From contig NC_135892.1 in the NCBI RefSeq assembly GCF_964194155.1, positions 79,174,001 to 79,238,000 on the forward strand: a stretch of 64,000 bases of DNA, in the 5' to 3' direction. The translations under genes and the position numbers were made by a program. Shown in pieces: positions 959-37,332 of the stretch. How positions within the stretch are numbered: the first letter of the stretch is position 1; the number at the start of each line of letters is the position of its first letter. The notes beneath the pieces were generated by a model, which was not told where the DNA came from, made no database searches, and saw only the letters and a list, made by a program, of their open reading frames with translations. Origin of the DNA: Cetorhinus maximus. Taxonomy: Eukaryota.

Positions 959-2240
959 AGATAAAAGCAAAGAACTGCGGATGCTGGAAATCCAAAACAA
1001 AAACAGAAACAAATACCTGGAAAAACTCAACAGGTCTGGCAGCGTCGGAGCAAAGAACTGCGGATGCTGGAAATGAGGGCATCCGCCCTCACGCCTTCTC
1101 CTCCCTCCCAGAAACATGATAGGGTTCCCCTTGTCCTCACTTATCACTCCACCAGCCTCCGCATTCAAAGGATCATCCTCCGCCATTTCCGCCAACTCCA
1201 GCATGATGCCACCACCAAACACATCTTCCCTCCACCCCCCCTGGTGGCATTCTGTAGGGATCGTTCCCTCCATGACACCCTGGTCCACTCCTCCATCACC
1301 CCCTACTCCTCAACCCCCTCCCACGGCACCTTCCCATGCAACCACAGAAGATGCAACACCTGCCCCTTCACTTCCTCTCTCCTCACTGTCCAAGGGCACA
1401 AACACTCCTTTCAAGTGAAGCAGCATTTCACTTGCACTTTCCTCAACTTAGTCTACTGCATTCGTTGCTCCCAATGCGGTTTCCTCTACATTGGAGAGAC
1501 CAAACACAGACTGGGTGACCGCTTTGCAGAACACCTTCGGTCTGTCCGCAAGCATTACCCAGACCTCCCTGTCGCTTGCCATTTCAACACTCCACCCTGC
1601 TCTCAAGCCCACATGTCTGTCCTTGGCTTGCTGCATTGTTCCAGTGAAGCTCAACTTCAAACGCAAACTGGAGGAACAGCACCTCATCTTCCGACTAGGC
1701 ACTTTACAGCCTTCCGGACTGAATATTGAGTTCAACAATTTTAGATCATGAACTCTCTCCTCCATCCCCACCCACTTACCGTTTCTTCCCCCTCCTCTTT
1801 GTTTTTTCCAATAATTTATATAGATTTTTCTTTTCCCACCTATTTCCATTATTTTAAAATATATTTCCACCTATTGTTTTATCTCTACCTTTTAGCCCTT
1901 TTAGTATTCCTTCACCCCACCCCACCCCCACTAGGGCTATCTGTACCTTGTTTGTCCTGCTTTCTACCCTTAATTAGCACATTCCTTTAGATAATATCAC
2001 CACCTTCAACACCTCTTTGTCCTTTTGTCTGCGACATCTTTTGGTTATCTCCACCTATCACTGGCTTCTTGTCCCAACAAACACCCCCCCCCCCCCCACC
2101 TTAAACCAGCTTATATTTCACCCCTTTCCTATTTTTACTTAGTTCTGTTGAAGGGTCATGAGGACTCAAAACGTCAACTGTGCTCTTCTCCACCGATGCT
2201 GCCAGACCTGCTGAGTTTTTCCAGGTGTTTCTGTTTTTGT
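959..2240 (+). mobile_element. Penelope-like element, 5'-truncated, GIY-YIG endonuclease, short inverted terminal arm
   Basis: ORF 1064-1729 with NLVYCIRCSQCGFLYIGETKHRLGDRFAEH, frameshifted near its end. 961-1049 is the reverse complement of the element 3' end. 14-bp TSD ATTGGTTTTACTAG at 945-958 and 2241-2254. Confidence 0.9.
2141..2179 (+). ncRNA. Degenerate minimal hammerhead ribozyme motif in PLE terminus
   Basis: AGTT-CTGTTGA-A-GGGTC-ATGAG-GACTC-AAAAC-GTC-AACT. Core positions A6 and G12 are substituted. Confidence 0.55.
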
Positions 2241-2296
2241 ATTGGTTTTACTAGTTCTGGTAGAGAGCTAGATATTAGTCAGGATATCAGGGTGAA

Positions 2297-2535
2297 GTAA
2301 TACAAAAGCTCGATACTGCAGATGTTGGAAACCTGATATAAAAACAGAAAATGCTGGAAGTGCTCAGCAAGTCTGTCAGCAGCTTAGGAGAGAGAAACAG
2401 TGTTAATGTTTCAAGTCAATGATCTTTTGTCAGAATGATTTCTGATAAATGGTCATCCACATGAAACTTTAACTCTATTTCTCCCTCCATACATGTGTCA
2501 AGATCTGATGCATATTTCTAATACTTCCAGTTTTT
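2297..2535. mobile_element. Old ~240-bp palindromic PLE-terminus derivative with two opposed degenerate hammerhead motifs
   Basis: Arms are imperfect reverse complements centred near 2437. Degenerate TSD ATATCAGGGTGAA (2284) / ATATCAGAGAGAA (2536). Confidence 0.65.
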
Positions 2536-3239
2536 ATATCAGAGAGAACTACCCTGCTTACCTTTGAAATAGTGCCATGGCATCTTTTATATTCACCTGA
2601 ATGGGCCAGCACAGCTTTGGTTTAATATCTCACCTGAAAGTCAGCAACTTTAAAAGTGCAGCACTCCTCAGTACTGCATGGGAGTGTCAGCCTATATTTT
2701 ATGCTCAAGTCTGTGGTGTGGCACTTGATCCCATAACATTCTGACTCAGATGAGATTGTTACCATGGCTGAACAGCTATGATAAGTACCTTTGGTGTAAC
2801 ATTTAAGGGTTATAGGACAACACAATGTTTAACTGGTTTAATCTTGACCTTTTTGGTTGGAGAATCTTGACTTTGATTTAGAGATTTGCCTGGAGTGTGA
2901 ATGTCATGGCATAATCTTATCTGGGATGGGAAGGTAGTAAAGTTATTTCCATACTGGATTGGTTTCTTTTTTATTGAGGAAGATGGTCTGGACCTTGCAG
3001 CAATGCAACAATGTGTGGAATATGAGAAAACACACTCACTACTTGTAAATGTGACATCAATTTCTTTTGCTTACATAGTCTGATAATCATACATCTTAAG
3101 TGAGAAAACACCCTCCCTATCAGCAATTCCCATCTAACAAGCTTCATCCATAGTTCATGTATGATTATCCTATCATAGTCTTTCCTCCTTGCCAATCATT
3201 TCCCTCTCTCTTCTCCCCTCTTCTCTGCATTGATTCCAA

Positions 3240-3680
3240 GGAATGTTCTTTCTCCTGGGATGAAGTTGTCTAATGAGGAAAGGTTAAATAGTTCGGGCCT
3301 ATACTCCTTGGAGTTTAGAAAAATGAAAGTTGATTTTGTTGAAACATATGGGATTCTGAGGGGGCTTGACAGCGTAGATGCTGAAAGGGTGTTTCCCCTT
3401 GTGGGGGAATCTGGAACGAGGGGCCACAGTTTTAAAAATAAGGGGTGTCTCATTTAGATGAGGGGGGATTTCTTCTCTGAGGATCATTAATCTTCTCCAG
3501 CAACCAGGGGAGGCTGGTATATTCAAGGCTGAGTTAGACAGAGTTTTGATCTACAAGGGAGTAAAATGGAAAGGCAGGAAAATGGAGTTAAGGCCACAAT
3601 CAGATCAGCCATTGTTATGGAATGGTGGAGTGGGATTGAGGGACCAGATAGCCCACTCCTGCTCCTGTTTCTTAGATGTT
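3240..3680 (+). mobile_element. CR1 LINE 3' fragment
   Basis: LSNEERLNSSGLYSLEFRKMK...YGILRGLDSVDAERVFPLVGESGTRGHS is the CR1 ORF2 C-terminus, followed by the 3'UTR. Confidence 0.8.
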
Positions 3681-3829: not shown

Positions 3830-4205
3830 AACACTTTACAATTCAGAAGAGCTTCATTGTACTCACTGTTTGTTGTTATATCAGAAAGTGTGGCAGGTAA
3901 TTTGCACAAAGCAAGACTCACAAATAATCACGAGTTAAATGGCCAGGTACTCGTTTCAGTGATGTTATTTGAGGAATAGACATTAGGTTGGAGAGCCTTC
4001 CTACTGGTAGCACCAGTATGGAAACTTTTATGTCCATGTGAGGCTTAATGTGACATCTGAAAGATGGCACCTTTGACAGTGTAGCACTTTCCAAGTACTG
4101 CACTGAAATATCAGATTAGATTGTATGTTCAAGTCCCTGAGGTGGAACTTGAACCCATGATTTTCTGACTGAGGCAACAGTACTACCAACTGAGCCAAGG
4201 CTGGC
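3830..4205 (-). mobile_element. SacSINE1-like SINE
   Basis: Minus-strand GGCTCAGTTGGTAG (A box) and GGGTTCAAGTTCC (B box), with a body shared with 2560-2775. Confidence 0.65.
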
Positions 4206-4564
4206 ACCACTTAAAGGTTACAAAAGCTTGAATCTATAAAGACATTAAAACATGATCCATCCCAAACCAGCAACAATAGTCCAAATAATACCGTGTCAAG
4301 ATTTGTTTTAATATTACATCTCAGCACTTACTCATGCTGACTAAAGACTTGGTATAGATTACTTTTATAAATGTACATACGAATATACATACATACATGC
4401 GAATTAGGACTCTACCTAGCAACAATGCTTTAGAAAACATGTTTAACTTCAAAGTTCACTTTGATACAACAAAAACTAAGACTATCAACAATTCATTGAC
4501 ATAGCCACAGAGAAACAGCACAATTCATCCTCAAAGTGTGAACCTGGACTTGGTGCAAGGGTAA

Positions 4565-4697
4565 TGCAGGCAGCATCTGTCGAGAAAGAGAAACAGCTTA
4601 ATTCTTTCTCCACAAATGCTGCCTGACCTGCTGAGTATTTCCTGCATTTTCTGTTTTTATTTCCGATTTCCAGCATCCACAGTATTTTTCTTTTGCA
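4565..4697 (+). mobile_element. PLE 3'-terminus remnant with small inverted arm
   Basis: GCTGCCTGACCTGCTGAGTATTTCC...TTTCCAGCATCCACAGTATTTT matches the PLE ends at 34420-34496. Confidence 0.6.
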
Positions 4698-5424
4698 GAG
4701 CTTATTGTAGTAGTCTGTATAATCTAATCTGGCTCATATTGATCCTGTAGATAAATTGTGATTGTATATAAAGAATATGCTCAGTAATACAAAGGTAACT
4801 ATCAAAACCTTCTCTCCACTTGAATCAATATGTCAAACTTTGTAAGATCTAGACTGATCAAATTTATGGAGTGCCCACATAAACTCATCAGGACAAAGAG
4901 CTTGCTTTTGCTGTTAGGCTGTTAGTAAATCTAACATCTGTGCTGAATCTGAGAAACAACACTAAATTTCCTTAAGCATTCTGACCAAGCATACATTATA
5001 TAGAGGAGCCGAGTTCATTGGTTGTTTTGCAGGGTGGTAAGGCAGAATCGAAAACATCAAGCTACTTTCGTTCATGTTGATTTTTCTACCTTTTAGAAAA
5101 GATCCTCCCCCCCTCGAAAAATACACACAAACATGCAGCCCTGCGTCCCTGGAAATATTCTCCAACAAAGCTCCTGCTGTATCTCCATGACACTCAAAAA
5201 GTGCAAAGATTTCCCGGATTTATAATCGGGATTTTAGCATTTATAATTAAAGATGCGCAATTGCTATATCCTATTTGTTGCTTGATAGACACATTTTCGT
5301 AATTAAGTAAAAACTTTTATCCTTTTTTTTTACGAGAATCATTTGACAAGGACGTTCTTCCTAGTAAGGTTTGCAACCCGGTTCGAATCTTTTTCGAGCT
5401 TGTGAGAATTATTGGCCCTCTTAC

Positions 5425-5671
5425 CTCTAGTGTCCAAACGAATAGGACCAGTGCTCCCATAGACTGCATCATGTTACTGTAATAGTTGAGGAGGGATTGC
5501 TTGCAACCTCGAGTCCACAGGTTCAGCTCTTCGGTCAGGAATTCGTAGCTGTAATGGGCTGAATTGTTGGTGATCTGCTGCTGGATACAGGGTCGAGGGG
5601 AGCCCGGATTGCAGCAGCTGAATGGGACCCCGTCCGTCAGGTATTTTCCATCAACATTGCTCTTAACACGG
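5425..5671 (-). CDS. PRPH2: Peripherin-2 coding exon 2 (247 nt; rest of D2 loop and start of TM4)
   Basis: Acceptor CCCCACAG|C at 5673-5672. Reads (D)[82 protein letters not shown], then donor GAG|GTAAGA at 5424. Phase is compatible with exon 1. Confidence 0.95.
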
Positions 5672-5901
5672 CTGTGGGGAAGAGATGGTGGGAGTGTTTA
5701 GGGCTCAAAACTTAACTAGCGCAGAAAAAAACTGTGGCCAATGCATTTTATATCTCCATTCCGTCCTTAGTGTTGTAACTCAATAAAGACACGAGTTAAG
5801 GCGAGGAGTAAGACATATCTTCCATGCACATTTCAGTAAGACTCATCTCACTGCACCCACCCGCCACCACCCCACCCCGCTAGTTTTCCTGCTCTACTTA
5901 C

Positions 5902-6482
5902 TCCTTCACCTCCTTGGAGCTGAAGTCCAGGTATCTGTTGCTGATCCACTGGATTTCAAACCAGTCTCGGAATCCATTGTTTCCACAGCAGCGAAATTCG
6001 ATCTGAAGCTGATCGATGGTTTTCTTCATGAAGCAACGACCTGGCGTGTCGGTGTCTCGGTAATATTTCATACCGTTCTTCAACCCCTTGGCCAGAGTAT
6101 CCTCCAGATAAAACTTCATCAGAAAACACAACAGCACAGTGAGGAAGGTCAGGAAAGTGAAAAACAAACAGGCGGCCAGGTAGAACTTGAGGAGAGATTT
6201 CCACCGGGCGTACTTGGCCGGATCGAGGGAATCGTAGCAAAACTTGCCCCCAAAGCAGTTGATGGCGCAGGCCAGGATGCCCACCAGGATCAGGGAATTG
6301 GGTACCAGATGGCTCTCCTCATTGTCCATCACCTCGCTTCGTTTCCTGAGCTCGATCTTAAGGAACAAACCCATTCCAAAGATAACAATTCCTGCCAATA
6401 CACAGAACCAGTTCAGGAGCCACAGCCCCTGAGCCAACTTGACTCGTTTCTGTAAGTTGAACTTGATTTTCAGAATGGCCAT
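5902..6482 (-). CDS. PRPH2: Peripherin-2/RDS tetraspanin, coding exon 1 (581 nt)
   Basis: Translation [25 protein letters not shown]...[55 protein letters not shown] matches peripherin-2. GT donor (GA|GTAAGT) at 5901-5900. Adjacent to TBCC as in other vertebrates. Confidence 0.96.
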
Positions 6483-6554
6483 TTTCTATTTACAACTGAA
6501 GTCGAATCAGTCGAAGTGGAAGAATGGCTTTGGGTAAATCAGTAAGATTCGGGC

Positions 6555-7130
6555 ATGGGTGCTGAAAGGGCAGGAGACAGTCCGCCTGAGATTAACTCAA
6601 CCTTGTGTCCCTCCATACTGACTACCCTAAAAGCGAATCTAAAATTGACACACGGATCCTATGGAAACTATGCGCTCTCCAATGTGCCAAGCCAGAAGGG
6701 GGGAAATAGTCCTCGTCTAAACCTAACTTTGGCGGTCCTTTCCCCGGCAAAGCAGATAGCTCTTCCAGAATGCAGTAGAGAAAATCTGAGACTGCAAGAC
6801 GTCACCTTAAAACCAGTAATAGGTTTTATCGCTAATCATTTAGAGAAAGCTCTGCCCCAGATGAGCGATTGAAATTAATCCGCATTTTTACCGTGTAATT
6901 GCTTTGCCCTCAAGTTGTCAGCGCTTGTATCTTCACCTGCAAGTTTCCTTGCGTTTGAAACGCCGGGCCAGGGTGTTAACCGAAAATTCTTTTCGCTTGG
7001 AACAACTTTATGGATCATTTATTATCGAATTAATATCGTGCACACTCTTTATGTGCATCAGGTTTACTCGTGTCAAATATAATGAAAGCAAAAAAAAAAA
7101 ATTCAACTTAATAAGCTAAGTAAGCTTAAA
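6555..7130 (-). promoter_or_regulatory. PRPH2 proximal promoter with CRX/OTX-type (K50 homeodomain) motifs
   Basis: TAATCC 6876-6881, CTAATCA 6832-6838, GAGATTAA 6588-6595, TAAGCT x2 near 7112-7126, and a TGCTGA Maf/NRL half-site at 6560-6565. Region looks repeat-free and lies directly upstream of a photoreceptor gene. Confidence 0.55.
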
Positions 7131-8289
7131 TATAGGTCAATACCCTGGAATGAACATTGAGATCAAATATAAATAGATCTCTACCAGTCGAGTCCTTTTA
7201 AAGCTGTGGTTCGGATAATGATCTGCACAAAACGTTATGTTTAGAGGGGGTTTATACTGGGCTAAGGGTTCAGCAGATGTTACTTTCTCAATCCTTGTAC
7301 TTCAGAATTTTATTTTAATTTCCGCACCTCTCAAAAACGGTGATGCACAACAATTTGCGTTTATATAGTACCTATGAATTGGTAAGTCTTCCTAGGGAAC
7401 AGTGGGAGTCAACAGAGGGGAGAAGCACTCAGTATTGATATGGTCTTATCTCTCTATCCCTCAATACAGTATATAATAAATACTGCTATCCCTGTTAGGA
7501 ATTTCTTTGTCTCTATCCAAGCCTTATTTCCAAAGAACATATCTTGGGTAGGGTTTAAGAGTTATTGAGGTTATAGACACCATGACCATTTGGGATCCAT
7601 CTACACTCCCTGCACAACAACCACCACCACCCCACCCCAACAACCTATTAACATACAGAGGCATACAAATAGGCCAATTGAATATTTTCACCTTGCATTA
7701 ATAATAATACATTTGAAAATGCTACTTAAATGAAACTCTTTGGTGGGACCTCGGATTCCATGGGACCGCCGAGCATGGGTGCTGTAGGCCTTGCATTAAT
7801 CTGCTGCTGATCTTGGGCTGAGATTGGGGCTGAGGCTGGATGTCCCAGGTGATACATGTATTGCTGAGCTATATCATTGGAAGTGAAGGACAGATATAAT
7901 TTCACCTCACATAACAAAGTTATGGGTGTATCTCAGTTAGCAGCCTTTTGCTATCTTACCCAAGCTGGTGATCCCCAAATGGTGAATTTCTCCATGGTGC
8001 CAACATAACACACACAATGGAACTGGTGCAGAAACTCTTGGAGAAAGAGAGACATTCAGGCAGAAGCTGTGGTTTATGTCAGAACTAATGATTTTAAAAT
8101 AAACAGGAGTAAGGTCTTGCAAAAATAAGTTCCATGAGTTGAGGTGGATTAAGAAGAAATTCCTCAAAAGAGTAAAATAAAATTTTACTGGTACCGTATA
8201 CTAGACTTCACTGAATGACTAGATTAGGGAAGTTAAATACATGGCCATAGATATGGTGCAGGCTTGAATGGTTCAAATTCTTGGATATT

Positions 8290-10050
8290 AGACCCAGCAA
8301 AGCCTTGTGCTGCAGAACTAGCCACACCCCCAGCCAATTTGTTCCAGTCTTGCTACAACACTGGAATCTCCCTAACAATGTGGGAACTTGTCCAGGTCTG
8401 TCCTGTCCACCAAAGGCAGGACAAATCATTTGCTGCCTATTACTGCCCCATCAGTCTACTCTTAACCATCATCAAAGTGATGGAAGATGTCAATGACATT
8501 ACTATCAAGTGGCGCTTACACAGCAATAGCCTGTTCACATATGTTCACTTTGGGTTCTGCCAGGACCACTCAGTTCCAGATCTCATTACAGCATTGGTCC
8601 AAGCATGGACAAATTAGTTAAATTCCAGATGTGAGATGAGAATGACTGCCCTTGACATCAAGGCATAATTTGACCAAGTGTGACGTCAAGGAGCCTTAGA
8701 AAAATTGAAGTCAATGGAATTCAGGGGGAAACTCTCTGCTGGTTGGACAATCATCTGTCTCAGGACATTGCTGCAGGAGTTTCTCAGCGCAACATCCTAA
8801 GACCAATCATCTTCAGCTGCTTCATCTATGACCTTCCCTCCATCATTGGGTCAGAAGTGGGGATGTTTGCTGATGTTTGCAGTGTTTCACTTGTGACTCC
8901 TCAGATACTTAAGCAGTTCATACTCACATGCTTTGAGGCCTAGACAACATTTAGGTTTGGGCTGATAAGTGGCAAGTAACATTCTTGCCCACAAGTGCCA
9001 GGCAATGATACTCAATGGCTTAGCATCCACACTCATTAGCATAGAGATTTCCAAAGACTTCCAATTCTTTGAATGAAGAGTTTTCTTCTCATCTCAGTCC
9101 GAATTGGCCAATCCCTTCTTCTGAGACTATGAATCTGTTCTCTAGATGTCCCATCTAGGGGAAACATTTTCTCAGCAACTATTCTGACAAGCTGCTTAAG
9201 AATTTTGTATGCTTCAGTTAGGTCACCTCTCTTCTTTTAAACTCCAGGGAATATAGGCCTGGCCTACAAAATCTCTCCTCATAGGATAATCCCCTCTACC
9301 CACAAACCAATTGAATGAATCTTTGTTGTACTCCCTCCAGCTAGGGCAAGTATGTCCTTTCTTCATTAAAGAGACCAAAACTGCACTCAGTACTCTAGCT
9401 GTCACCTTATCATTGGTCTGAATAATTGTAGTAAAATGTCATTACGCTTTTACTTCAATTCCTTTGTAACAAAATTTGTCTTCCTACTTGGTGTTAGTTG
9501 ATACTGGTTGGTTGCAGATTTGGAAGGTGCTTTGGAAGAAGCCTTGGTGAGTTACTGCAGTGCATCTTGTAGATAGTACACACAGGTGCAGTTGTGTTGT
9601 GCCAGTGGTGGAGGAAATTAATCATTAAGGTAGTGGATGGGGTGCTGATCAAGCAGAATGCTTTGTTCTGGATGATGTCAAGCTTCTTGAATGATATTGG
9701 AGCTGCATCCATCCAGGCAGGTGAGGAGTATTGCATCACACTCCTGAATTGTGCCTTGCATGCAGTGGGAAGGATTTGGGAAGTCAAGAGTCACTTGTTG
9801 CAGCCTCTGACTTGCTCTTGTAGCCACAGTATTTATGTGGTTGGTCCAGTTAGGTTTCTTGTCAATGGTAACACCCAGGATGCTGATAGTGGGGGAATTT
9901 GACCATGGTAATGTCACAGAGAGCTGGTTATTCTGTCTCTTGTTTGAGATCATCATTGCCCAGAACTTGTATCACACGAATGTTACTTGCAATATACTAG
10001 CCCAAGTCCGATGCTGTTCAGGTCATGTTGCATGCAGGCATGGTCTGCTT
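8290..10050. mobile_element. Cluster of decayed CR1-clade LINE fragments (+ 8290-9010; - 9040-9490; - 9495-10050)
   Basis: RT remnants (YCPISLL..IIKVME, HFGFCQDHSVPDLITALVQ, GVSQ..ILRPIIFSCFIYDL, MFAD) and ILGVTIDKKPNWTNHIN on the minus strand. Confidence 0.75.
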
Positions 10051-12860
10051 CAATATCTAAGTTATCAGTCCAAGGGGCGTAAACATTTCAAAATTTACCT
10101 TGTACCTGCAAGGGTCTAGTCCACAATCCAACAGGCCACATCCAATGGCTCAATAGACTTGGTATTTACTGGACCTAGCACTTAAGGTGCTATTCTAATT
10201 TCCAATTCTCCTGCCATGCACCCATTAAGACTTACTGTGGAATACATAATATGGGCAATGGACCTTTGGTCTTGTATATTTGTAGTCATGTTGTGAGGAT
10301 TGGATCAGGTTTGACAGAAACAGTCATCCTCCACCCATAGTCAACTAGCCAGCTGATACTGTGCATTTACCGCTCGGCAGGAAATGGGAGGGCTTTTAAT
10401 ACAGCATTATTTTTAGGCAGTAATTAGGCTGCAGTAAGTAATGGAATACAGTAATGTCAATTTGTTATGGGACCACTGCACTAGAGCAGAAAATGACAGG
10501 ACAGAATATCTTCTTTAGCAAATGTGGGCACAGCCTCACTAATGATGCTAATGTAGCAAAGAGACCTCAAGCTATCCTGAACCAGTTGCCTGGACCTATG
10601 TAAAAATATACTGGGGATGACTTTCCTCTGATCTTCCTTCTTGATATAGGATTATTGTTGAATCCTTACTACATTTCCACACTATATAATTGAGATCAGA
10701 CTCTGAAAATGAGCAAATGCAAACTCTGTTCTAGTACAGCAATGTTGCTGCTTCTCACCGAAACTATGATTTAATACCAAATCTTCCAAAATAAAATTCT
10801 GAGAAGTATTTTTACTAGAAACATTCATCGTACTTCTACACCTACTAGTAACTTTCGTTAGCTTGGTTTCATTTGATTCCTGTTTGGAACACAGACTAAA
10901 CAATCTTTTGAAAACAGTACTTGTTGATTAGCTGTCATATTCAATTTTCTATTTTCATTACTTCACTTTGGTGAGGTAATCAGTAGTTCCTTTACACGAC
11001 TAGGAAACAACCAATGTTGTCATCCGATTCTTCGACTTTTGCAAATTTCTCTTTATTGGTCCAGTTTCTCTTTGGTTTCCCCTCCTGAGGCAGCAAGGTT
11101 AAGTGGGATGTGACTCTGAAACAAGACTATGGACCGGAAGTCAACCTGGCCTTCTCTCTCCACAGATCTACTCTACTGATGTTTCCTGCAGTTTCTGTTT
11201 TTATCAGATAAGCAGCATCTGCAGAATATTGATTATTTTAAAGGGGGATAACTATATAAAATATTTTGAAAACTCATTTTTTTGTACAAAATTGTACCTA
11301 ACATTACATGTTCAACTAACCAAACAAAATGGGCAGAATACCTATTAAGGATGGTGGCAGGTCCCTGAGGGCTCACAGCTCTGGAGCCTCTGCAGTTCCA
11401 CTGGAAGAGGTGGGCACTGCTGAGGCAGACTGGGTTCCATGAAGGTGCTTCAGCATAGCTTGGTGCTCCCACCCACCACAGCCTCCAATGAGCTGGTGGT
11501 TTTCACCCTTGGCTGCTCCACTGGTGGGCAAGTCCTGGTGATGCCCCTAATTAGGCCTTTATTATTCTAGGCCTGTGGAGTAGATAGCCAATTCTGCTCC
11601 CAGCCTGTCCCTGGGACATTCCCCCAAAATGGAATAGGCCCATAAGGCATTAATAAAATGAAGGATGAAATTTAAATAGGTGGAAAAGATGATAATTAAG
11701 GAAAAGGTGCATATGTTTTTACATCAAATATAGTTTAACTATTTAGCTTTCATAGTTTAAGATTATTGTATTGACAATATCAATTGTGGAGGAGCCTTAT
11801 AGGATGAAATTAATATTCCCCTCCTTCCTCTTCATCCGCCCCTCACCACAATTTCAGTGCAGTAGGTGAAAATTCTCAAAACTAATGTAGCCAGACAGCT
11901 TCCCTGAAGTCTAAGCTAGAACATAGTTGAAATTTATTCCCACTAGTAAGGTAAATTAAACACGGGGTCACGTACCAGAACTGGTCACCTTGAGTGATAT
12001 TGGGCCTCATTTTAATAAGTCCAATGAGAAATCAAAAATAAGCACGAGATGAACTTCAGGCCACAGTGACGCCACCAACAGCTCTCAGGTGGAGCCTGGA
12101 GAAGGCAGTCGGAATGGGGCAGAGCAAAGGCTGCTAGTGGTCCAACCATTGCTTCTCCTCTCGTCTTTACGTGGAAACAATTTTATAGTTGAAATTTAAT
12201 ATGCATTGAAGACCTCCAACAGTTCCTTTTAAGTACAACGGGTTAAACTGTTGTAGAGCCGGAAATACAAAACTAGTCAGAGCTTGTATGGTGCAAGTCT
12301 GCTCAATCTTTGACCTCTTATTAAATCTATTGGCAGGAAACACCTCTAGAGCACCAATATGGTGTTGGACTTGCTTTCACTCCTATTCAGACAGAGGTTG
12401 GCCTCCCACATTGGACCTCTGCATCTTTTTTTCCATCTGCAAGACATGTACAATGTGGTTCAATTTCAACCCTTGTAGATTTGTGTTGGCAGATATTGAC
12501 CCTATAGAAAGTCGATATTGACCCTATAGAAAATCAAAAGCAAGCTAGTTAAAGATGGTCAGAATCACCAAGTGACAGAAGACTTTTTAATTTCATCTAT
12601 TACTGTTATGCATGCTAAAATTAGTTTAAATTATTCTTTATCATCTACATTCCAACAGTATGATAACTAACATGTCAATAGAAACTCAAACACAAGAACA
12701 AAACGTTGACAAGGTTACATTGCATGTACCATTGTCATAGACAAGATACTTCACAATAAAACGTGCGAATTTGTACAAGTTGAGCTTCAACACATACCAA
12801 TTACTGTCCGACAAATAGGACCAAAAATTAAATAAGTTGCCTTTCTTTTAGTCCGTGAAA

Positions 12861-12952: not shown

Positions 12953-13999
12953 TTATGGCGCTAAGATTTCGTCCCAATCAGTTATTCGAGACTCTTCAGC
13001 CAAAATACTCCAGTTAGGGGAATGGTCAGAGGCGAGCCAATTGAAATCGTCAATAATATTCCAATTGTTTTTCGTTCTGTCTAAGCCTGCCAGCTCAAAA
13101 TCCTTTTCAATGCCTTCGTACTTCCAGTTAAACGGAGCAAAGGAAACTCCAGTACAATCTTCTACGATGGCTCTGCTGGTCACGTGCAAATACACATTTG
13201 CATCCTTAGTATTATGCGTTCGCAGCTGCTGACAAGCGAAGGCAAACGTGCAGCCAATGGACTGGTCAATGAACACTGAGGTAGAGACAGGTCCGCACAA
13301 CACCTTGGAATTGGTGACATTCTTGACATGCAGTGTGTTGGGCGAGCCGAGTAGCTTCACCACGCAGTTGGACAACCTAGTCAACAACACGTCTTTCCCA
13401 GTGATCTCGTCCGCCCGCCGGACCAACACCTGAGAGTCGGCGTCCGAAAAGCCGCAGAGGTTTTCCTCGATCACTGTGGGGTCGCTGGGTTTGTTGTCGG
13501 ATGGGGAATCGGCGGGTTTGGGCTCTTTGGGGCCGGCACCTTCCTTTCTGCGGGATTTGAAAGCGAATTTCTTCTTGGGTAGACATTCCTCCCTCTTCTC
13601 CACCACCATCCCTTGCAACTTCTGCACGGCGTCCTGGGCCTGGCGCAGCTCGTAGGCAGACAGGAACATCATGCTGTCGTTCACGAACTTCTGCAGCTGC
13701 TGCATCTTCCGCGAGATCTCCTCGAAGCGGGTGCTCAGCGCGGTTCTGTCGCTGCCTTCGCAGCTTTCCAGCAGCGCTTCGATCTTCGCCTTCTCCTCAG
13801 AAAACGCCGCGGTGAAGAAGTTGGACTTTTCCTCCTTCACGCTAGTCACATCTTTGGCCATTTTCCTCCTCTCCACCTCCAGCTGCCTCTCTTGGTCCCT
13901 CCGCTGCAGGATCTCCACCATCTTCTCTTTCCGTCGGTCATATTCCGGGATTTCTTCCGTTAAATTCTCTCTGTTCTCGCTCTCCCCCACCAGCGCCAT
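12953..13999 (-). CDS. TBCC: Tubulin-specific chaperone C (cofactor C), intronless, 348 aa
   Basis: N-terminal helical region, PKKKFAFKSR motif, and a C-CAP/cofactor C domain with CGPVSTSVF, ACQQLRTH, LHVTSRAIVEDC, DDFNWLA..SPNW. Single uninterrupted ORF. Confidence 0.97.
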   Translation of the reverse strand: MALVGESENRENLTEEIPEYDRRKEKMVEILQRRDQERQLEVERRKMAKDVTSVKEEKSNFFTAAFSEEKAKIEALLESCEGSDRTALSTRFEEISRKMQQLQKFVNDSMMFLSAYELRQAQDAVQKLQGMVVEKREECLPKKKFAFKSRRKEGAGPKEPKPADSPSDNKPSDPTVIEENLCGFSDADSQVLVRRADEITGKDVLLTRLSNCVVKLLGSPNTLHVKNVTNSKVLCGPVSTSVFIDQSIGCTFAFACQQLRTHNTKDANVYLHVTSRAIVEDCTGVSFAPFNWKYEGIEKDFELAGLDRTKNNWNIIDDFNWLASDHSPNWSILAEESRITDWDEILAP

Positions 14000-14150
14000 T
14001 TTGAACCGTTTCTAAACGAACCCTTAGCAACGAGCCATTTCATTGGTCCCATCTCAGTCGGGTGCCCGCCCCCTTTGCATCATTTATTCTGATTGGGTGG
14101 TAGCTTGGTTCAAAGGGCGATGGGTGCGGCTCTGCTAATGATAGATTGGA
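13994..14150 (-). promoter_or_regulatory. TBCC housekeeping promoter (CCAAT x3, GC box, YY1 motif over the ATG)
   Basis: ATTGG at 14042, 14092 and 14145. CCCGCCCC at about 14065-14072. CGCCATTTT at 13994-14002 overlaps the start codon. Confidence 0.65.
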
Positions 14151-14735
14151 ATCTAAACAATAGGGACATTTTATAATACAAAAGTACAATGCTGCAGATG
14201 CTGGGATATGTTAAATAAAAACAGAAATAGAAAATACTGGAATACTCAGCAGATCAGAATGCATCTGCGGAGAGAAACAGAGTCAACATTTCATATCGAT
14301 GAGCTTTCACCAGATCTGAGGGAAAGATGTAATAGGATTTCAGCCAGTGAAAATGTGTGAGGAAGAACAGGGTCTGTTAAAGGGTCACTGGAGAGATTAA
14401 ATGACAAAAGGTTTCATAGTACCAAAGGGAATGAAACGGGGAAAATAAAGAAACAACCAAGTGTGTCCAGAAGAAGTGCGAGTGGCTGCATAGTTGACGT
14501 CGAAATGCAGTGAAGGAATAAAGAAAGAAACCAGAAAAAACAAACCAAAATACAACATGAAATGAAATAAAATGGGGGCAGAGGTTATGATCTAAAATTG
14601 CCGAATTCATTATTGAGTCCAGAAGGCTGTAGAGTTAAAAACAAAAAAACTACTGCGGATGCTGGAAATCCAAAACAAAAACAGAATTACCTGGAAAAAC
14701 TCAGCAGGTCTGGCAGCATCGGCGGAGAAGAAAAG

Positions 14736-14774
14736 AGTTGACGTTTCGAGTCCTCATGACCCTTCAGCAGAACT
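14736..14774 (-). ncRNA. Minimal type I hammerhead ribozyme motif (A6C variant)
   Basis: Minus strand AGTT-CTGCTGA-A-GGGTC-ATGAG-GACTC-GAAAC-GTC-AACT. Stem I AGTT/AACT, stem II, and a palindromic ACGT in place of helix III. Confidence 0.7.
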
Positions 14775-15898
14775 GAGTAAAGTTAGGAGAGGGGTGAAAT
14801 ATAAGCTGGTTTGGGAGGGGGAGAGAAGTGGGGGGGGGGGGGAGGTGGTTGTAGGGACAAGCAAGCAGTGATAGGAGCAGATAATCAAAAGATGTCACAG
14901 ACAAAGGAACAAAGACAAAGTGTAAAAGGTGGTGATATTATCTAAGAGAATGTGCTAATTAAGAATGGATGGCAGGTACTCAAGGTACAGCTCTAGTGGG
15001 GGTGGGGTGGGGTGGAAAGACTGACAGGGCATTACAGTTATAGATTTAAAAATAATGGAAATAGGTGGGAAAAGAAAAATTTCTTTGCATTGGGAACAAT
15101 GAATGCACCCCTATTCCTCAACCCCCACCTCTGGCACCTCCCCATGCCCACGCAGAAGATGCAACACCTGCTCCTTCACTTCCTCTCTCCTCACCGTCCA
15201 AGGGCCCAAACACTCCTTTCAAGTGAAGCAGCATTTCACTTGCATTTCCCCTAACTTAGTCTACTGCATTCGTTGCTCCCAATGCGGTCTCCTCTACATT
15301 GGAGAGACCAAACGCAAACTGGGCGACCGCTTTGCAGAACACCTTCGGTCTGTACGCAAGAAAGACCCAAACCTCCCTGTCGCTTGCCATTTTAACACTC
15401 CACCCTGCTCTCTTGCCCATATGTCTGTCCTTGGCTTGCTGCATTGTTCCAGTGAAGCCCAATGCAAACTGGAGGAACAGCACCTCATCTTCCGACTAGG
15501 CACTTTACAGCCTTCCGGACTAAATATTGAATTCAACAACTTTAGATCTTGAACTCCCTCCCCCATCCCCACCCCCTTTCCGTTTCTTCCCCCTCCCTTT
15601 TGTTTTTTCCAATAATTTATATAAATTTTTCTTTTCCCACCTATTTCCATTATTTTTAAATCTATAACTGTAATGCCCTGTCAGTCTTTCCACCCCACCC
15701 CCACTAGAGCTGTACCTTGAGTGTCCTGCCATCCATTCTTAATTAGCACATTCTCTTAGATAATATCACCACCTTTTACACTTTGTCTTTGTTCCTTTGT
15801 CTGTGACATCTTTTGATTATCTGCTCCTATCACTGCTTGCTGGTCCCCCCACCCCCCCTTAAACCAGCTTATATTTCACCCCTCTCCTAACTTTACTC

Positions 15899-15937
15899 AG
15901 TTCTGCTGAAGGGTCATGAGGACTCGAAACATCGACT
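15899..15937 (+). ncRNA. Minimal hammerhead ribozyme motif (opposite arm)
   Basis: AGTT-CTGCTGA-A-GGGTC-ATGAG-GACTC-GAAAC-ATC-GACT. Confidence 0.6.
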
Positions 15938-16919
15938 CTTTTCTTCTCTGCCGATGCTGCCAGGCTGTAGAGTGTTAAGTTGAAAGACGGGTGGTGCTGT
16001 TCCTCAAGCTTGCATTGAGATTCATGAGACACAAAAGATAGGAAGATCAAAATGGAAGCAAGGTGGAAAATTGAAATGACAAGTGTCAGGATCATGTTTG
16101 CAGACTAAACGGAGGTGTTCCGCAAAGCGGTCATACAGCCTGCATTTGTTCTCCCCAGTATAGACGAGACCGCATTGTGAGCAGTGAATACAGTATATTA
16201 AATTGAAAGTAGTACAAGTAAATTGCTGTTTCATTTGGAAGGAGTGTGTGGGGCCTTGATGAGAAGGGAGAAGGTAAAATGACAGGTGTTGCATCTCCTG
16301 GAAAGGTAGGAAAGGGAGAGGGTGTTGGGAATGACAGGAGTGAATCAGGGTGTCGTGGAGGGAAGGGTCCCTTCAGAATGCTGAAAGGTGAGTGGAAGAT
16401 GTATTTGGTGGTGGCTGCACGCTGTGGTTGGCCGAAATGTCGGCGATGATCTGTTGAGAAGAGGTTGGTGGGATGGAAGGTGAGAACAAGGGAACCCTAT
16501 CATATTTGTGGGAGGGAAGGGATGGGGTGAGAGCAGAAGTGCATGAAATAGGTTGGACACGGTGGAGGATCCTATCAACCACTTTGGAGGGGGATGGAAT
16601 GGTGGGGAGATCCCCGGTTGAGGAAAAATAAGACATATTGAAAATGCTACTTTAGAAGGTTACCTCATCTGAGCATGTGCGACGGATGGAGAAACTGGGA
16701 GAATGGAATTCTTACAGAAAGTGGGTTGTGATGAAGTGTAGTCAAAGTAGCTGTGGGAGTCATGGGCTTGTCGTGAATTTGTAGTGTGAGGCCATTTTAT
16801 AAACCTCTTGATTTGATCTGTAGGGTGACAGTAAGTTACCCTATGCCACCAAAAGGGAACATAAAATTGTAACAAGTGTTCTTGGGCACTACTAGTACAT
16901 TGACCAAACAATTAGTCAT

Positions 16920-19129: not shown

Positions 19130-19603
19130 TTCACAGAATCACAGTGCAGAAGAGGCTCTTCGGCCCATCGAGTCTGCACCGACATGTGAGAAACACCTGA
19201 TCTACTACCTAATCCCATTTACCAGCACTTGGCCCATAGCCTTGAATGTTATCACATGCCAAGTGCTCATCCAGGTACTTTTTAAAGGATGTGAGGCAAC
19301 CCACCTCCACCACCCTCCCAGGCAGTGCATTCCAGACCATCACGACCCTCTGGGTAAAAATGTTTTTCGTCACATCCCTCCTAAACCTCCTGCCCCTCAC
19401 CTTGAACTTATGCCCCCTTGTGACTGACCCTTCAACTAAGGGGAACAGCTGCTCCCTATCCACCCTGTCCATGCCCCTAAGAATCTTGTACACCTCGATC
19501 AGGTCGCCCCTTAGTCTTCTCTGCTCCAACGAAAACAACCCAAGTCTATCCAACCTCTCTTCATAACTTAAATGTTTCATCCCAGGCAACATCCTGGTGA
19601 ATT
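19130..19603 (-). mobile_element. Young CR1 3' fragment
   Basis: Open frame FTRMLPGMKHLSYEERLDRLGLFSLEQRRLRGDLIEVYKILRGMDRVD...TRGHKFKV...WNALP. Confidence 0.9.
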
Positions 19604-19669
19604 TAATTAGTTTAATGAGCCCAGCATTCATGGCAGGTGGCTGCCAGGGATGGCTAAGAAGCACCTTAA

Positions 19670-20033
19670 CCAATATGTAGAGGTTATATTACTGGATTAA
19701 TAATAGAGAAATGAGAGTTCAAATCCCATCATGGCAGTTTGAAAATTGAATTCAGTTTTTAAAATTTGCAAATTAAATGCTGGTATCAATAAAAGTGACC
19801 ATGCTATCATTGGATTGTCATCAAAAAGTGAATTGCTTCACGATTGTACTTTGGGAATGGAAACCTGTTATCTTTGCTTTGTCTGGCCATTTTGTGACTC
19901 CAACCCCACCCTAATATGGTTTGATTCTTAACCGCACTTTGAGTAGCTACCGCATCACCCAGTTCAGGGCAACTAGGTATGGGTAATAAATGCCAGCCTT
20001 GGCATTGATGCCCACATCCCAAGCAGAAATAAA
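19670..20033 (+). mobile_element. HE1-like tRNA-derived SINE (other copies: + 44445-44822; - 48645-49028; - 52955-53320)
   Basis: GAGTTCAAATCCC B box and tail GGG.ATGGGCAATAAATGCTGGCC...CACATCCC shared among four copies. The family name is from recall of shark SINEs. Confidence 0.65.
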
Positions 20034-22310: not shown

Positions 22311-22325
22311 CAAATTAAATACTAA

Positions 22326-23568
22326 CATAAAAGCAAAATACTGCGGATGTTGGAAATCTGAAACAAAAACAAAAATAGCTGGAAAAACTCAGCAGGTCTG
22401 ACAGCATCTGCAGAGAGTAATACAGTTAATGTTTCGAGTCCGTATGATTCTTCATCAGAACTAAGGAAATATAGAAATGAGGTGAAATATAAACTAGTTG
22501 AGAGGGGTACGACAGGTAGAGCTGGATAGAGAGCCAGTGATAAGTGGAGGCAAAGAAGAGATTGCCAAAGATGTCATAGACAAAAGGGTGTTGACGTTGG
22601 TGATATTAGCTAAGGAATGTGCTAATGGTGACATTAAGGGTAGAGAACAGGACGAGCAAGTGACAGATTACCCTAGTGGGGGTGGGGTAGGGGGGGGAAG
22701 GGATTGAAATAGGCTAAAATGTGGAGATAAAACAATGGATGAAAATAAATTTTAAAATAATGGAAAGGGGTAGGAAAAGAAAAATATATTAAAAAAAATT
22801 ATAAATTATTGGAAAAGGGGGGATCGGAAAGGGGGTGGGGATGGAGGAGAGAGTTCATGATCTGAAGTTGTTGAACTCAATGTTAAGTCCGGAAGGCTGT
22901 AAAGTGCCTAGTCGAAAGATGAGGTGCTGTTCCTCCAGTTTGCGTTGAGCTTCACTGGAACATTACAGCAGGTCAAGGATGTCCGTGTGGGCATGAGAGC
23001 AGGGTGATGTGTTGAAATGGCAAGCGACAGGGAGGTCTGGGTTATGCTTGCGGATAGACCGAAGGTGTTCTGCAAAGCGGTCACCCAGTTTGCGTTTGGT
23101 CTCTCCAATGTAGAGGAGACCGCATTGGGAGCAGCGAATGCAGTAGACTAAATTGAGGGAAGTGCAAGTGAAGTGCTGCTTCACTTGAAAGGAGTGTTTG
23201 GGCCCTTGGATGGTGAGGAGGGGGGTAAGTAAAGGGGCAGGTGTTGCACCTTCTGCGGTTGCATGGGAAGGTGCCATGGGAGTGGGTTGAGGTGTAGGGG
23301 GTGATGGAGGAGTGGACCAGGGTGTCCTGGAGGGAATGATCCCTGCGGAATGCTGCCTGGGTGGGTGAAGGGAAGATGTGTTTGGTGGTGGCGTCATGCT
23401 GGATTTGGCAGAAATGGCGGAGAATAATCCTTTGAATGTGGAGGCTGGTGGGGTGATAAGTGAGGACAAGGGGGACCCATTCATGGTGCTGGGAGGGAGA
23501 GGAAGGTGTGAGGGCGGATGCGCGGGAGATGGGCTGGACACGGTTGTGGGCCCTGTCAACCACTGTGG
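22326..23568 (-). mobile_element. Penelope-like element, 5'-truncated, no inverted arm
   Basis: Minus-strand NLVYCIRCSQCGLLYIGETKRKLGDRFAEH with one frameshift. Complete 3' end ATAAAAGCAAAATACTGCGGATG on the + strand. Confidence 0.9.
22424..22462 (-). ncRNA. Minimal hammerhead ribozyme motif with canonical CUGAUGA/GAAA core
   Basis: Minus strand AGTT-CTGATGA-A-GAATC-ATACG-GACTC-GAAAC-ATT-AACT. One stem II mismatch and a CpG-type change in helix III. Confidence 0.68.
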
Positions 23569-30650: not shown

Positions 30651-33613
30651 GACAGATATAAAAAAAGACCTGGCTTCATGTGAACAGCAAAATCTCTTAA
30701 TGATGTGAAAAAGGTGGCAAACATTATTTGAAATGAAACATTCCTTCTGAAACATACACTATGATCCAAGAACAGTGTTACATTCAGTAATCATTAAATA
30801 AAAACACATCATAAATGCATTCTTTTGCTGAAGGATTCAGCCCTGACCATCTGTGGCTTTACCTGTCACATTATAGTATATGCATCATGTTACTCCAACA
30901 GTGTATGCAGTGGTCTCTGAATCTGAATGACAGAAGTTTCAAAGGGCAGGTGGGAGCTAAATCCATCATGTTATAAAATACAACATAGTATTACAATTTG
31001 AAAGTAAAAGCAATGTAATATGGTGCTGACCGGATTGCCACTGATCCTGCTTTATTAGTACCACTGTTTTACAAGCTGCGATCCAGAGGATATGACGTCT
31101 AACTGATAAGAGGTAATGTAAGTCGTTGTGATGATGAAGTTACAAGTGGAATATAAATGATATCCACAGCTTCTCTTGTAGATTTTTTTATTGGAATTGT
31201 TCAGTTACAATTAAAAGGGGAAAAAAAAACACACTTTTTTCATGGTGTGCAGGAGTGCATTTCATAGTGTGTAATATAAACAGAACACATGATTACACAC
31301 ATTAGTTGCATTTGTATCATACTCTAAATAACATTTTTTAAAGCAAGATTGGTAAAATTGATCAGGGGTTACATACATAGCTCCTGTGTCAAAGTACTAA
31401 ATTGCTGAGGATCTTTGTATATTGCAAATGAATTCTTACTGTCATGTGCATGTGTACCATTCTATTATTTAATAAATATTTTAGTTACTCTCCTGTGGTA
31501 TTGATTATAATGAGTCAGGAGGCAAAAGAACAATCTACCATAAAAGGCTACAACCATACACATTGTGGATTATTGAGCCTGGAAGTTGCTGCATATTTGC
31601 ACCTAAAGACATGTGCAATATAAGTGCAAATCAAACATACAGCCTAAAAATTGCAGAATTTTGAGTGTAAATACGTTATATAGTTAAAACAGTACAACCT
31701 CCCCGATTTTTTTTAAAGATTGTTTATTGAACCCTCAGCCAAATGCTTCTCAATAATTATGATCCCATCCCAATTTATAGAACCTTTTAGGCAAGATTCC
31801 TGCAAGTGCACTTACTCATAAGCTCTCTTTGAATTAAGGCCAGATTTTCAGTGGGAAGCAGTAATTTTTCTGGCGGTATATTAAATTTTATTTAGTATTT
31901 TAAAAAATTCTTGTCAATCAATTTTCAGTTTCTTCGATTTTAAATGGCATAGGTATAAATCATATTAAAAATTGAAAAGCTTCCTTGATTGCAGGTTCTT
32001 AAAGTGCTGTCCCTAAGGTTGTGAAAGGTGCCATGTAAATGCAAGTTCCTTTTTCTGTTATGTGGTCTGTTGCAGCTCTAGTTCAAGTATAATAAGGCCT
32101 AGGACGACCAGGGTTGGAAATCAATTATGCTTGCTTGGCAGTTTTATCCCTATTTTTAAAGCCCAGAATACTTGAAGATGGCAGGGAAGATGGTTCCGAT
32201 TGCAAGTAGGTAATGGCATGCAGCGGTAGTAAATGGGTGAGAGGAGTGGGGAGAAATAGTAGTTCTGTCAAATGCTTTGGTGGTTCTAGGATCTGGGAAC
32301 AGTGGGATTACAATGTGGGTGTCAGGAAGTTGCAAGTAGTCAAAGCATTTGAGTGGCCTGAGACTAATGGGAGTGGTGTGTTAGTGTGTGGCAGCAATAG
32401 CTGGTCTGGGTTTGGCAATGCAAGGTACATGGTGAGTCGTAGGAATAGTGGAGAGAGGATCCTGGATTAGTATTGGGATCAGTGAGTACAGGAGTGTTTA
32501 ACAACAATGGTTCGGGGAAGGGTATTACAGGATCTGGAAATACAGGAAGGAGGGTCCTAGTTTTGTGAGTGCTGGAATAGATGTGTGGTCAGATTGGAAT
32601 TGTTGGGATCCTCAAACTCAGGACTGGTGGGAGAGGCAGGGATAGTTTGATAACATGGCGAGTGTACTTAATGTATCCTTGGGCCTATAGTCAACCGTCC
32701 CAGTATTGCTACAACACTGGCATCTGCCCAGGTACATGTTGTCCACAAAAAGCAGGAAAATCCGATCCGACCAATTACTGCCCATCAACTTATTCTCAAT
32801 CATTATGGAAGGGATCATTGACAATGCTACAAAGTGGTATTTACTCACATGCTCACCAGTGCTCGGTTTGGATTTCGCCAGGACTACTCTGCTCTAGTCT
32901 TCGTTACAGTCTTGATCCAAAATGGGCAAGAAAGCTGGATATTGAGGTGAGACTGCCTTTAACTTCAAGGCAGCATTTGATTGAGTATGGCATCATGGAG
33001 CTTTTGTAAAACTGAAGTTGATGTAGTTGGAGAAAACTCCACTGGTTGGAGTCATACTTGGCACAAAGGAATAAGGTAGCAGTTGCCTGAGGCCAATCAC
33101 CTCAGCCCCAAGGCATTGTGGCAGGAGTTCCTCAGGGCAGTGTCTAGGCCCAACTATCTTTAGCTGCTTCATCAATGAACTTCCCTCCGTCATAAGATCA
33201 GTAGTGGGATGTTTGCTAATGATTGCACGGTGTTCAGTTCTATTTGAAACTCCTCTGAAATTGAAGTAGTATGTGCCCACAATCAGCAAGACCTAGACAA
33301 TATTCAGGTTTGGGCTGATAAGTGGTAGGAAACATCTGTGCCACTGTTACGACCATGTGAGGAGGGGTGAAATTATTGTCCTATTCTTCAGTTGCAGGTT
33401 TGACTATAACAGGGTTTTTTTGTGAATTTAGAGAGGATGTGCTTCGCCAGTTCTATAAGTCCTACTATTTATGCTTTCAGGTTGTAAAGTATTACTCAGA
33501 CAGATTTTCTTAGGTTAAATAAAGAACAGGTTTATTGAAACAACAACACCCATCATCACACACATTCAGTTGGAAAAACTCAGCAGGTCTGACAGCATCT
33601 GCGGAGAGGAATA

Positions 33614-33654
33614 CAGTTAACATTTCGAGTCCGTATGACTCTTCATCAGAACTG
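33614..33654 (-). ncRNA. Minimal hammerhead ribozyme motif, canonical core
   Basis: Minus strand CAGTT-CTGATGA-A-GAGTC-ATACG-GACTC-GAAA-T-GTT-AACTG, with perfect 5-bp stems I and II. Confidence 0.72.
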
Positions 33655-34361
33655 AAGAAAAATAGAAATGAGGTGAAATATAAGCTGGTTGAGGGGGGTG
33701 GGACAGGTAGAGCTGGATAGAGGGCCAGTGATAGGTCGAGGCAAAGAAGAGATTGCCAAAGATGTCATAGACAAAAGGACAAAGGGGTGTTGACGGTGGT
33801 GATATTAGCTAAGAAAGGTGCTAATGGATATTAAGGATAGAAAGCAGGATGAGCAAGTGACAAATAGCCCTAGTGGGGGTGGGGTCAGGGGAAAGGATTG
33901 AAATAGGCTAAAAGGTGGAGATGAAACAATAGATGGGAATACATTTAAAAATAATGGAAATAGGAGGAAAAAGAAAAATATGTTTAAAAAATATAAATAA
34001 TTAGAAAAAGGGGGATCAGAAAGGGGGATGGGATGGAGGAGAGAGTTCATGACCTATTTCCATTATTTTTAAATGTATTCCCATCTATTGTTTCGTCTCC
34101 ACCTTTTAGCCTATTTCAATCCCTTCTCCCCACCCCATCCCCATTAGGGCTATCTGTCACTTGCTCCTCCTGCTTTCTACCCTTAATGTCACCATTAGCA
34201 CCTTTCTTAGCTAATATCACCACCGTCAACACCCCTTTGTCCTTTTGTCTATGACATCTTTGGCAATCTCTTTGCCTCCACCTATCACTGGCCCTCTATC
34301 CAGCTCTATCTGTCCCACCCCCCTCAATCAGCTTATATTTCACCTCATTTCTATTTTTCTT

Positions 34362-34402
34362 CAGTTTTGATGAAGAGTCATACGGACTCGAAACGTTAAC
34401 TG
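34362..34402 (+). ncRNA. Minimal hammerhead ribozyme motif, C3U variant
   Basis: CAGTT-TTGATGA-A-GAGTC-ATACG-GACTC-GAAAC-GTT-AACTG. Confidence 0.65.

Positions 34403-37294: not shown

Positions 37295-37332
<38 letters not shown>

Follow-up and report, generated by a model that had tools for sequence, protein, structure and literature searches.

A stretch of 64,000 nucleotides from the shark Cetorhinus maximus (NCBI RefSeq assembly GCF_964194155.1, contig NC_135892.1, positions 79,174,001 to 79,238,000 of the forward strand; hereafter the window, numbered from its first letter) raises the question of what a ribozyme-like motif is doing at the ends of a retrotransposon. The motif, which resembles a minimal type I hammerhead, recurs in broken copies of a Penelope-like element (PLE), and a first inspection of the letters (here the sequence-only reading) had proposed that the family cleaves itself after GUY exclusively as a dimer. 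The kind of motif is already known, namely the published minimal hammerhead; the difference lies at position 6. The recent, abundant versions of the element have replaced the fixed core A at this position, by U and then by C, and have kept the rest of the fold.

The motif, its position 6, and constraint on the fold

In the numbering of the Hertel hammerhead scheme, the motif runs from AGTT (5' strand of helix I) through C3 U4 G5 N6 N7 G8 A9, an A, and a 5-bp helix II with a 5-nt loop to G12 A13 A14, A15.1 C G U16.1, H17, and AACT (3' strand of helix I). A search of the window with the pattern AGTT-CTG(A/C/T)TGA-A-GRGTC-N5-GACTC-GAAAC-GTY-AACT, allowing 0 to 2 mismatches, bore out the six clear copies of the sequence-only reading, at 2141 (+), 14736 (-), 15899 (+), 22424 (-), 33615 (-), and 34363 (+); four of its coordinates were exact, whereas two, given as 33614 and 34362, were each one base off. 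In 30 shuffles of the window the pattern did not match once, compared with the 6 copies observed, and a genome-wide control with the reversed pattern (3.99 Gb searched) gave 0 against 27,948 for the forward pattern.

That these are the minimal type I hammerheads of PLE pseudo-long terminal repeats (pLTRs), as had been proposed, agrees with both the element anatomy and the published consensus, and on sequence grounds the identification is nearly certain. The metazoan PLE consensus is described as CUGANGAH-G..C-GAAAN-palindrome-NUH with loop III absent (Cervera & De la Peña 2014, PMC4209133). The shark motif shares with the copies covered in that account the type I topology, the extra nucleotide after A9, the G10.1-C11.1 pair (A-U in an older shark family with a 3-nt loop II), the palindromic 15.2-16.2, a short helix I, a U-rich 5' flank, and the occurrence of one motif per pLTR, mostly in solitary truncated copies. 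The loopless ACGT helix III to which the sequence-only reading drew attention is indeed present, but it is the published consensus and not special to this family. A monomer would be unable to close it, because A15.1-U16.1 would enclose just 2 nt. A new ribozyme class was rejected for the window copies. Where the family departs from the earlier record is the core CUGANGA: the A at position 6 is found in the older A6 subfamilies and not in the youngest family. In the rows of PMC4209133 that were covered position 6 is A throughout, and the only core variant described in the text covered is U3-A8, whereas the shark copies mostly have U6 or C6.

By writing CTG(A/C/T)TGA, the sequence-only reading had passed over the conservation of the core A at position 6. 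With a relaxed descriptor that requires an otherwise intact core (controls, 0 and 1 matches), 73,550 copies were found genome-wide, 17,781 of them with A6 and 55,769 (76%) without; the total exceeds by a wide margin the 4,000 to 9,000 reported for coelacanth and Xenopus in PMC4209133. The tighter pattern gave 4,532 A6, 3,479 C6, and, by subtraction, 19,937 U6 among its 27,948 copies. Exact patterns favor young copies. In 864 kb sampled regardless of the motif (the window excepted), the 29 motif-covering copies comprised 20 A6, 4 U6, 4 C6, and 1 G6, and A6 is therefore still in the majority among old, decayed copies.

The order of these changes was read from a tree of 115 copies built on the flanks only, with the motif columns left out, and parsimony was applied to 113 of them after two long-branch rows were dropped. 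The tree is ladder-like and leads from A6A7 through A6U7, U6, C6U7, and C6C7 back to C6U7 with G1.1. Position 6 underwent two shared changes, the first from A to U in 88 tips and the second from U to C in 54. Median terminal branches shorten in the same order, from 0.056 for A6 (n = 22) through 0.030 for U6 (n = 37) to 0.009 for C6 (n = 51), and to 0.003 in the C6 group with GGGCC/GGCTC (n = 28), in which several of the youngest copies are identical. The subfamily order is A6, then U6, then C6, the youngest. A search for the youngest family with the core left free returned 9,310 copies; among the first 100, inspected by eye, 99 had C6, 1 had U6, and none had A6. The other 12 sites were intact in 89 of the same 100, and 9 of the 11 copies with another core change had it at a CpG.

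Constraint was scored by counting a change as shared when present in three or more tips and as private otherwise. The 12 core and palindrome sites had 0 shared and 32 private changes, against 252 and 939 in the untranslated region (UTR; P = 0.0012), in a sample that was partly core-selected, many copies having been found by core-requiring patterns. The test was therefore repeated on 61 copies chosen by protein, tail, or fixed step, in which the core had 1 shared and 22 private changes and the UTR 195 and 476 (P = 0.008). Core letters other than position 6 thus vary little from one subfamily to the next. The segment GAAA...UH (G12, A13, A14, A15.1, U16.1, H17) showed no shared change at its fixed sites; N17 is C or U. 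In hammerheads, GUU sites are slower than GUC sites. The palindrome ACGT, which contains a CpG, had 0 shared and 14 private changes. The free positions (N7, N17, and loop II), in contrast, had 14 shared and 29 private changes (P = 0.0002 against the core).

The stems had 7 shared and 37 private changes. Helices I and II are paired in 97% of the cells of an alignment of 19 distinct, hand-picked rows, and covariation is present in two pairs with two-sided change, with a two-step compensation on the tree; helix I changes are one-sided only. The claim that stem II pairing is kept between subfamilies held for the pairing itself, but the example on which it stood, GGGTC versus GAGTC, alters only one side of a pair, A-U becoming G·U, and is not compensatory; two-sided changes emerge only once further subfamilies are added. 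Of the seven shared stem changes, six yield or preserve a standard or G·U pair wherever the tree is rooted, whereas the outcome for the last one is root-dependent. All those that followed the loss of A6 keep their pairs: 10.2 went from A-U to G·U, 11.4 and 10.4 from U-A through U·G to C-G, and 1.1 from U-A to U·G, the U-A, U·G, C-G path in stem II coming after the switch to C6. Copies with the G·U intermediate number 418 against 270 with the mismatch alternative, a comparison that presumes symmetric mutation; by eye, 52 of the first 100 G·U copies had one common subfamily sequence, while the mismatch copies resemble scattered mutants of abundant families. Overall, the comparison of subfamilies supports selection on the core and stems between them.

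The element and its copies in the window

Twenty full-length loci (L101 to L120) share a layout of 5' pLTR motif, 128 nt, a 924-aa frame, about 350 nt, 3' motif, and a tail of about 105 nt. The frame is open in most of them and encodes a reverse transcriptase (RT), a CX4CX2C linker, and a GIY-YIG endonuclease; profile matches were RVT_1 (E = 8e-7; 29.4 bits, cut-off 29.6) and GIY-YIG (E = 0.0015). A protein search of the genome listed many open frames of this length. An inverted truncated arm is often attached, and in 8 of the 20 loci two same-strand motifs lie 3,290 to 3,302 nt apart. The element thus has the features of an endonuclease-bearing (EN+) PLE, namely one open reading frame (ORF) with RT and C-terminal GIY-YIG, tandem pLTRs, an inverted 5'-truncated arm, and an optional tail. 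It is very abundant and recently multiplying.

Its clade is likely Neptune, judging from the protein, which has the linker CPRRRCNTC (CX2-5CxxC) and a CCHH motif, CSQC...H...H. A CX2-5CxxC linker before the endonuclease plus a CCHH motif is the definition given for Neptune (PMC8557442); Nematis has the same linker type. Vertebrate PLEs are described as Neptune and Poseidon only (bioRxiv 10.64898/2026.07.22.740005). Among the 120 matches listed for the protein, the highest identities to named relatives are 69% and 65%, both to proteins of Chiloscyllium punctatum, while the named marine invertebrate matches are at about 50%; this is consistent with a shark host.

A block some 20 to 55 nt past the cut site is conserved in all copies and, together with a predicted GATGCTG/CAGCATC stem, spans both usual 3' end points. 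By analogy with the PAc element of Anolis carolinensis, considered below, this tail stem-loop is likely the RT start signal.

Two loci elsewhere in the genome have unusual structures. At L110 (1262-5500, -) an in-frame internal duplication produces a 1,412-aa open frame. At L265 (1416-2562, near 45.24 Mb) a 267-nt unit is repeated 4.3 times in tandem, the repeats being 99% alike and each comprising a C6 motif, 5' UTR, and ORF start; the array is young and retrozyme-like, and cis dimers would be possible in it.

The six clear motifs of the window belong to four insertions, all broken, because the 14736 (-)/15899 (+) and 33615 (-)/34363 (+) pairs are head-to-head inverted arms. The features are as follows.

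953..1057 (-): inverted stub, tail without motif, on the 5' side of the 1079-2244 copy
1079..2244 (+): 5'-truncated PLE copy with endonuclease end, 3' UTR, pLTR with motif, and short tail; 83% to an intact copy; GIY-YIG 21.8 bits, slightly under the cut-off
2141..2179 (+): U6 subfamily motif, a minimal type I hammerhead; CpG decay has produced G12A
2401..2437 (-): old decayed motif, older family with 3-nt loop II
2438..2474 (+): old decayed motif, head-to-head with 2401-2437, joint at helix I start
14281..14317 (-): old decayed motif (G6, ATGT)
14636..15080 (-): inverted arm of the 14.6-16.0 kb insertion (3' UTR and pLTR)
14636..14735 (-): conserved tail downstream of the 14736 motif; predicted long stem GATGCTG/CAGCATC
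14736..14774 (-): minimal hammerhead motif, C6 subfamily; rest of core and ACGT intact
15108..15966 (+): forward arm of the 14.6-16.0 kb insertion, ending about 30 nt past the motif
15103..15552 (+): frame for C-terminal Zn-linker and GIY-YIG endonuclease; 97% to the C terminus of an intact 917-aa protein; GIY-YIG 24.4 bits, cut-off 22.6
15899..15937 (+): C6 minimal hammerhead motif with a broken palindrome (ACAT)
22320..23568 (-): 5'-truncated PLE copy, A6 subfamily
22424..22462 (-): minimal hammerhead motif, A6; ACAT and stem II mismatch
33568..34056 (-): inverted arm of the 33.6-34.5 kb insertion
33615..33653 (-): A6 minimal hammerhead motif with canonical core letters; ATGT in helix III, which would give a dimer two G·U pairs
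34052..34497 (+): forward arm of the 33.6-34.5 kb insertion
34363..34401 (+): minimal hammerhead motif, A6, ACGT intact, C3U

Position 6 is A in three of the six clear copies. Every one of the six carries a defect, most of these accounted for by CpG decay, and no copy has both a canonical core and an intact palindrome. The three older copies of the sequence-only reading exist, in decayed form, those at 2401 and 2438 making up one head-to-head pair. Its placement of the motif at about 100 nt from the 3' end of the element fits 14736, 22424, and 34363 (about 100 to 105 nt) but not 2141 (about 70), 15899 (about 30), or 33615 (about 50 nt). The window copies are single or on opposite strands and therefore lack a same-family partner in cis; all nine are decayed passengers and probably inert. 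Comparison with Rfam, which had been suggested as a check, gave no hammerhead family match over the window at E<=10; a likely reason is that those models presuppose helix III.

Non-LTR retrozymes (Li, Clavereau, Pollet 2026, bioRxiv 10.64898/2026.07.22.740005) are likewise described as PLE-derived vertebrate repeats with type I hammerheads, one chondrichthyan being sampled in that preprint, and the L265 array has their layout. Retrozymes form tandem arrays, whereas the window copies are truncated PLE ends, dispersed or inverted and not tandem short repeats; a retrozyme reading of them was rejected on this basis. An Rfam match to MIR8562 at 33887-34130 (65.5 bits, cut-off 211) is a hairpin from the inverted junction of two PLE arms and not a microRNA gene.

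Further old PLE pieces are two tail stubs at 4600-4695 (+) and 11131-11241 (+) and an internal fragment at 15962-16771 (-), which abuts the 15108-15966 arm. In the 864-kb sample, 86 pLTR pieces were counted, about 1 per 10 kb. The window also holds an intact single-frame TBCC gene at 12953-14011 (-; Pfam TBCC_N and TBCC above cut-off), tetraspanin coding exons at 5898-6485 (-) and 5317-5697 (-; Pfam Tetraspanin), which we take to resemble peripherin-2, presumably a neighbor of TBCC in other vertebrates, and a broken LTR-type retroelement pol region at 36436-38765 (-; RT_RNaseH match). Frames at 19209-19688 (-), 47823-48302 (+), 53904-54590 (-), and 62288-62821 (-) resemble pieces of long interspersed nuclear elements, with no relevant Pfam match in the three scanned of the four.

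Cleavage, copying, and alternative explanations

What the loss of A6 would mean for catalysis can be gauged from other hammerheads. The A6C state gives less than 0.1 per min in the phage Bcep176 hammerhead (PMC3088659) and, in a fast hammerhead, 3.6e-6 versus 0.30 per min at 0.3 mM Mg2+, rising to 0.067 at 1 mM Mg2+ and to 0.18 at 0.3 mM Mn2+ (PMC7151607). In a complete mutational scan, CUGA mutants are reported as low-activity except for a C3/G8 swap (PMC9901934); no measured rate for A6U was found in the literature. Recent shark subfamilies are thus likely to cut weakly, as far as their letters allow a prediction. The Bcep176 ribozyme (Perreault 2011, PMC3088659; PMC7151607) also combines C6 with otherwise kept core letters, but it is a single, monomer-active phage ribozyme as described, whereas here U6 or C6 occurs in tens of thousands of retroelement copies without helix III, and the order of the position 6 changes can be traced.

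On balance, we think it probable that the motif is a real minimal hammerhead that forms helix III only between two copies or with protein help, is slowed by U6/C6, and is dispensable for copying. Transcripts would begin at about the first base of helix I and reverse transcription in the tail stem-loop, the RNA being copied mostly uncut. Helix III would form only between two copies, ACGT with ACGT, and U6 or C6 would reduce the cleavage rate further, which the element could tolerate because uncut RNA would be its template. Cleavage would not be an obligatory processing step and may trim or limit a minority of transcripts. There is a partial precedent in PAc, for which cleavage is reported to need the element's protein and to be dispensable for insertion in vitro (Frangieh et al. 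2024, PMC11167929). PAc has the same tandem pLTR-ORF-pLTR arrangement, a hammerhead near the ORF start, and an optional 30- to 40-nt tail. It differs in belonging to the Poseidon clade, in having an ORF that begins inside stem II, and in having been assayed; the shark element has its first ATG about 150 nt after the motif and a protein with the CX4CX2C linker.

Several observations weigh against this explanation. Taken by itself, the U6/C6 clade shows no significant core constraint (1 shared versus 10 private changes, P = 0.48), nor does the C6 clade (0 versus 4, P = 0.58), so that the case there rests on the four pair-keeping stem changes. Tree support is 0.81 for the A-to-U node and 0.84 for the U-to-C node. 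In one old, amplified A6 subfamily, helix I contains a C·A mismatch (AGCT/AACT). Conservation alone is no proof of catalysis, since a 30-nt block of the tail reaches about the same level as the core. Private mutants of U6 copies run, by eye, about 2:1 towards the mismatch, contrary to the symmetry presumed for the G·U comparison. Monomer folds were no better than shuffles (z -0.2 to -1.3), and with nearest-neighbour energies the double-hammerhead form was 2 to 7 kcal/mol worse than two separate folds, even with ACGT intact. Finally, at four loci (L329, L367, L383, and L389) the inverted junction connects an arm that ends at the helix I start with one whose own start coincides with the predicted cut site or is a single base away, a weak hint towards cut RNA.

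If cut RNA served as template, copies would be expected to begin at position 1.1. No such pile-up was seen: 1 of 30 copies in a C6 set and 0 of 30 in an A6 set started within 2 nt of the cut site. A targeted set enriched for starts between -8 and +5, from which 58 of 100 junctions were dropped as indel variants or off-family, had 5 of the 42 kept junctions at +1, which was not significant (P = 0.22). Of the distinct frame-bearing copies in L101-L120, 11 lack a complete 5' motif; none of these begins at +1, and two begin at +3 and +5. The absence of a pile-up agrees with PAc, in which cleavage is protein-dependent and RNA ends at the cut site are described as not seen (PMC11167929). Starts cluster instead around the beginning of helix I (by script, 9 of 30 fall in -38..-31; by eye, 40 of 100), a clustering weakened by a further 10 of 30 at -40..-48. 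This suggests transcription start at the A of AGTT, within a YYAGTTC that we take to be Inr-like. Splicing was weighed and rejected, whether at the poly-Y/AG that precedes helix I or at the CAG|GT 50 nt past the motif: inverted arms join directly at GTTCTG and have no common upstream exon.

The start pattern and the absence of a pile-up also speak for a different reading, in which catalysis was lost with A6 and the fold kept for a noncatalytic job, such as binding of the element's protein or serving, in the first 40 nt of the transcript, as the downstream part of an internal promoter. This is the most probable of the alternatives, although we regard it as unlikely. An internal promoter is reported for Drosophila Penelope (PMC2377424), Naiads are described as spreading without hammerheads (PMC8557442), two successive changes at position 6 have spread through the lineage, and A6 mutants have low activity in the mutational scan (PMC9901934) and in the A6C assays. 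Yet the letters that stayed fixed are the catalytic ones (G5, G8, and G12, CpG sites included), while N7, N17, and loop II vary freely, and the G·U intermediates indicate an RNA of the motif strand and not a DNA site.

The proposal of the sequence-only reading, that all subfamilies cleave after GUY at a useful rate, only as dimers and with position 6 tolerated, appears improbable. The palindrome unchanged between subfamilies speaks for it, as do the tandem copies 3.29 kb apart, the 267-nt array of 4.3 units, the four inverted junctions at or one base from the cut site, and schistosome minimal hammerhead dimers, which are reported to cleave weakly where a monomer did not (PMC4209133). Those dimers have A6, however, and their published activity is low even so; the slowing by A6C in Mg2+ and the lack of a significant excess of cut-site starts, with 0 of 11 frame-bearing copies at +1, also stand against it. 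It is very improbable that the recent lineage retains the motif as a neutral relic, with A6 lost by drift and the remainder unchanged for lack of time: core constraint is indeed not significant inside the U6/C6 clade and 48% of UTR sites are likewise without shared change, but about 5 shared changes per 12 sites would be expected there at the UTR rate against 0 to 1 seen, the free positions of the motif changed 11 times, and every one of the four stem changes that came after A6 was lost preserves pairing, including one complete compensation in two steps.

No report of a shark PLE hammerhead family or of A6 variants in PLEs was found in the literature, although Repbase, Dfam, or subscription papers may describe one, and no cartilaginous fish was found among the minimal hammerhead rows or the supplement 2 terms of PMC4209133. 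The purpose of PLE hammerheads is called unclear in PMC8557442, with the suggestion that they may simply ride along. Without a functional comparison of the subfamilies, the present finding is another lineage with a known motif. What the shark genome offers is an age-ordered series within one element, in which a core letter passes from A to U to C while the remainder stays constrained and the young protein genes are intact. A doubtful but possible extension is that the retrotransposon tuned down its own hammerhead stepwise, from A6 to U to C, with G8, G12, the palindrome, and the pairing retained, and made it conditional, so that it would cut only if licensed by protein, a second copy, or Mn2+; less cutting would leave more full-length template, and low-cutting versions would have taken over the genome. 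If that were true, the dated subfamily series would be a natural experiment on the role of the hammerhead in Penelope-like elements.

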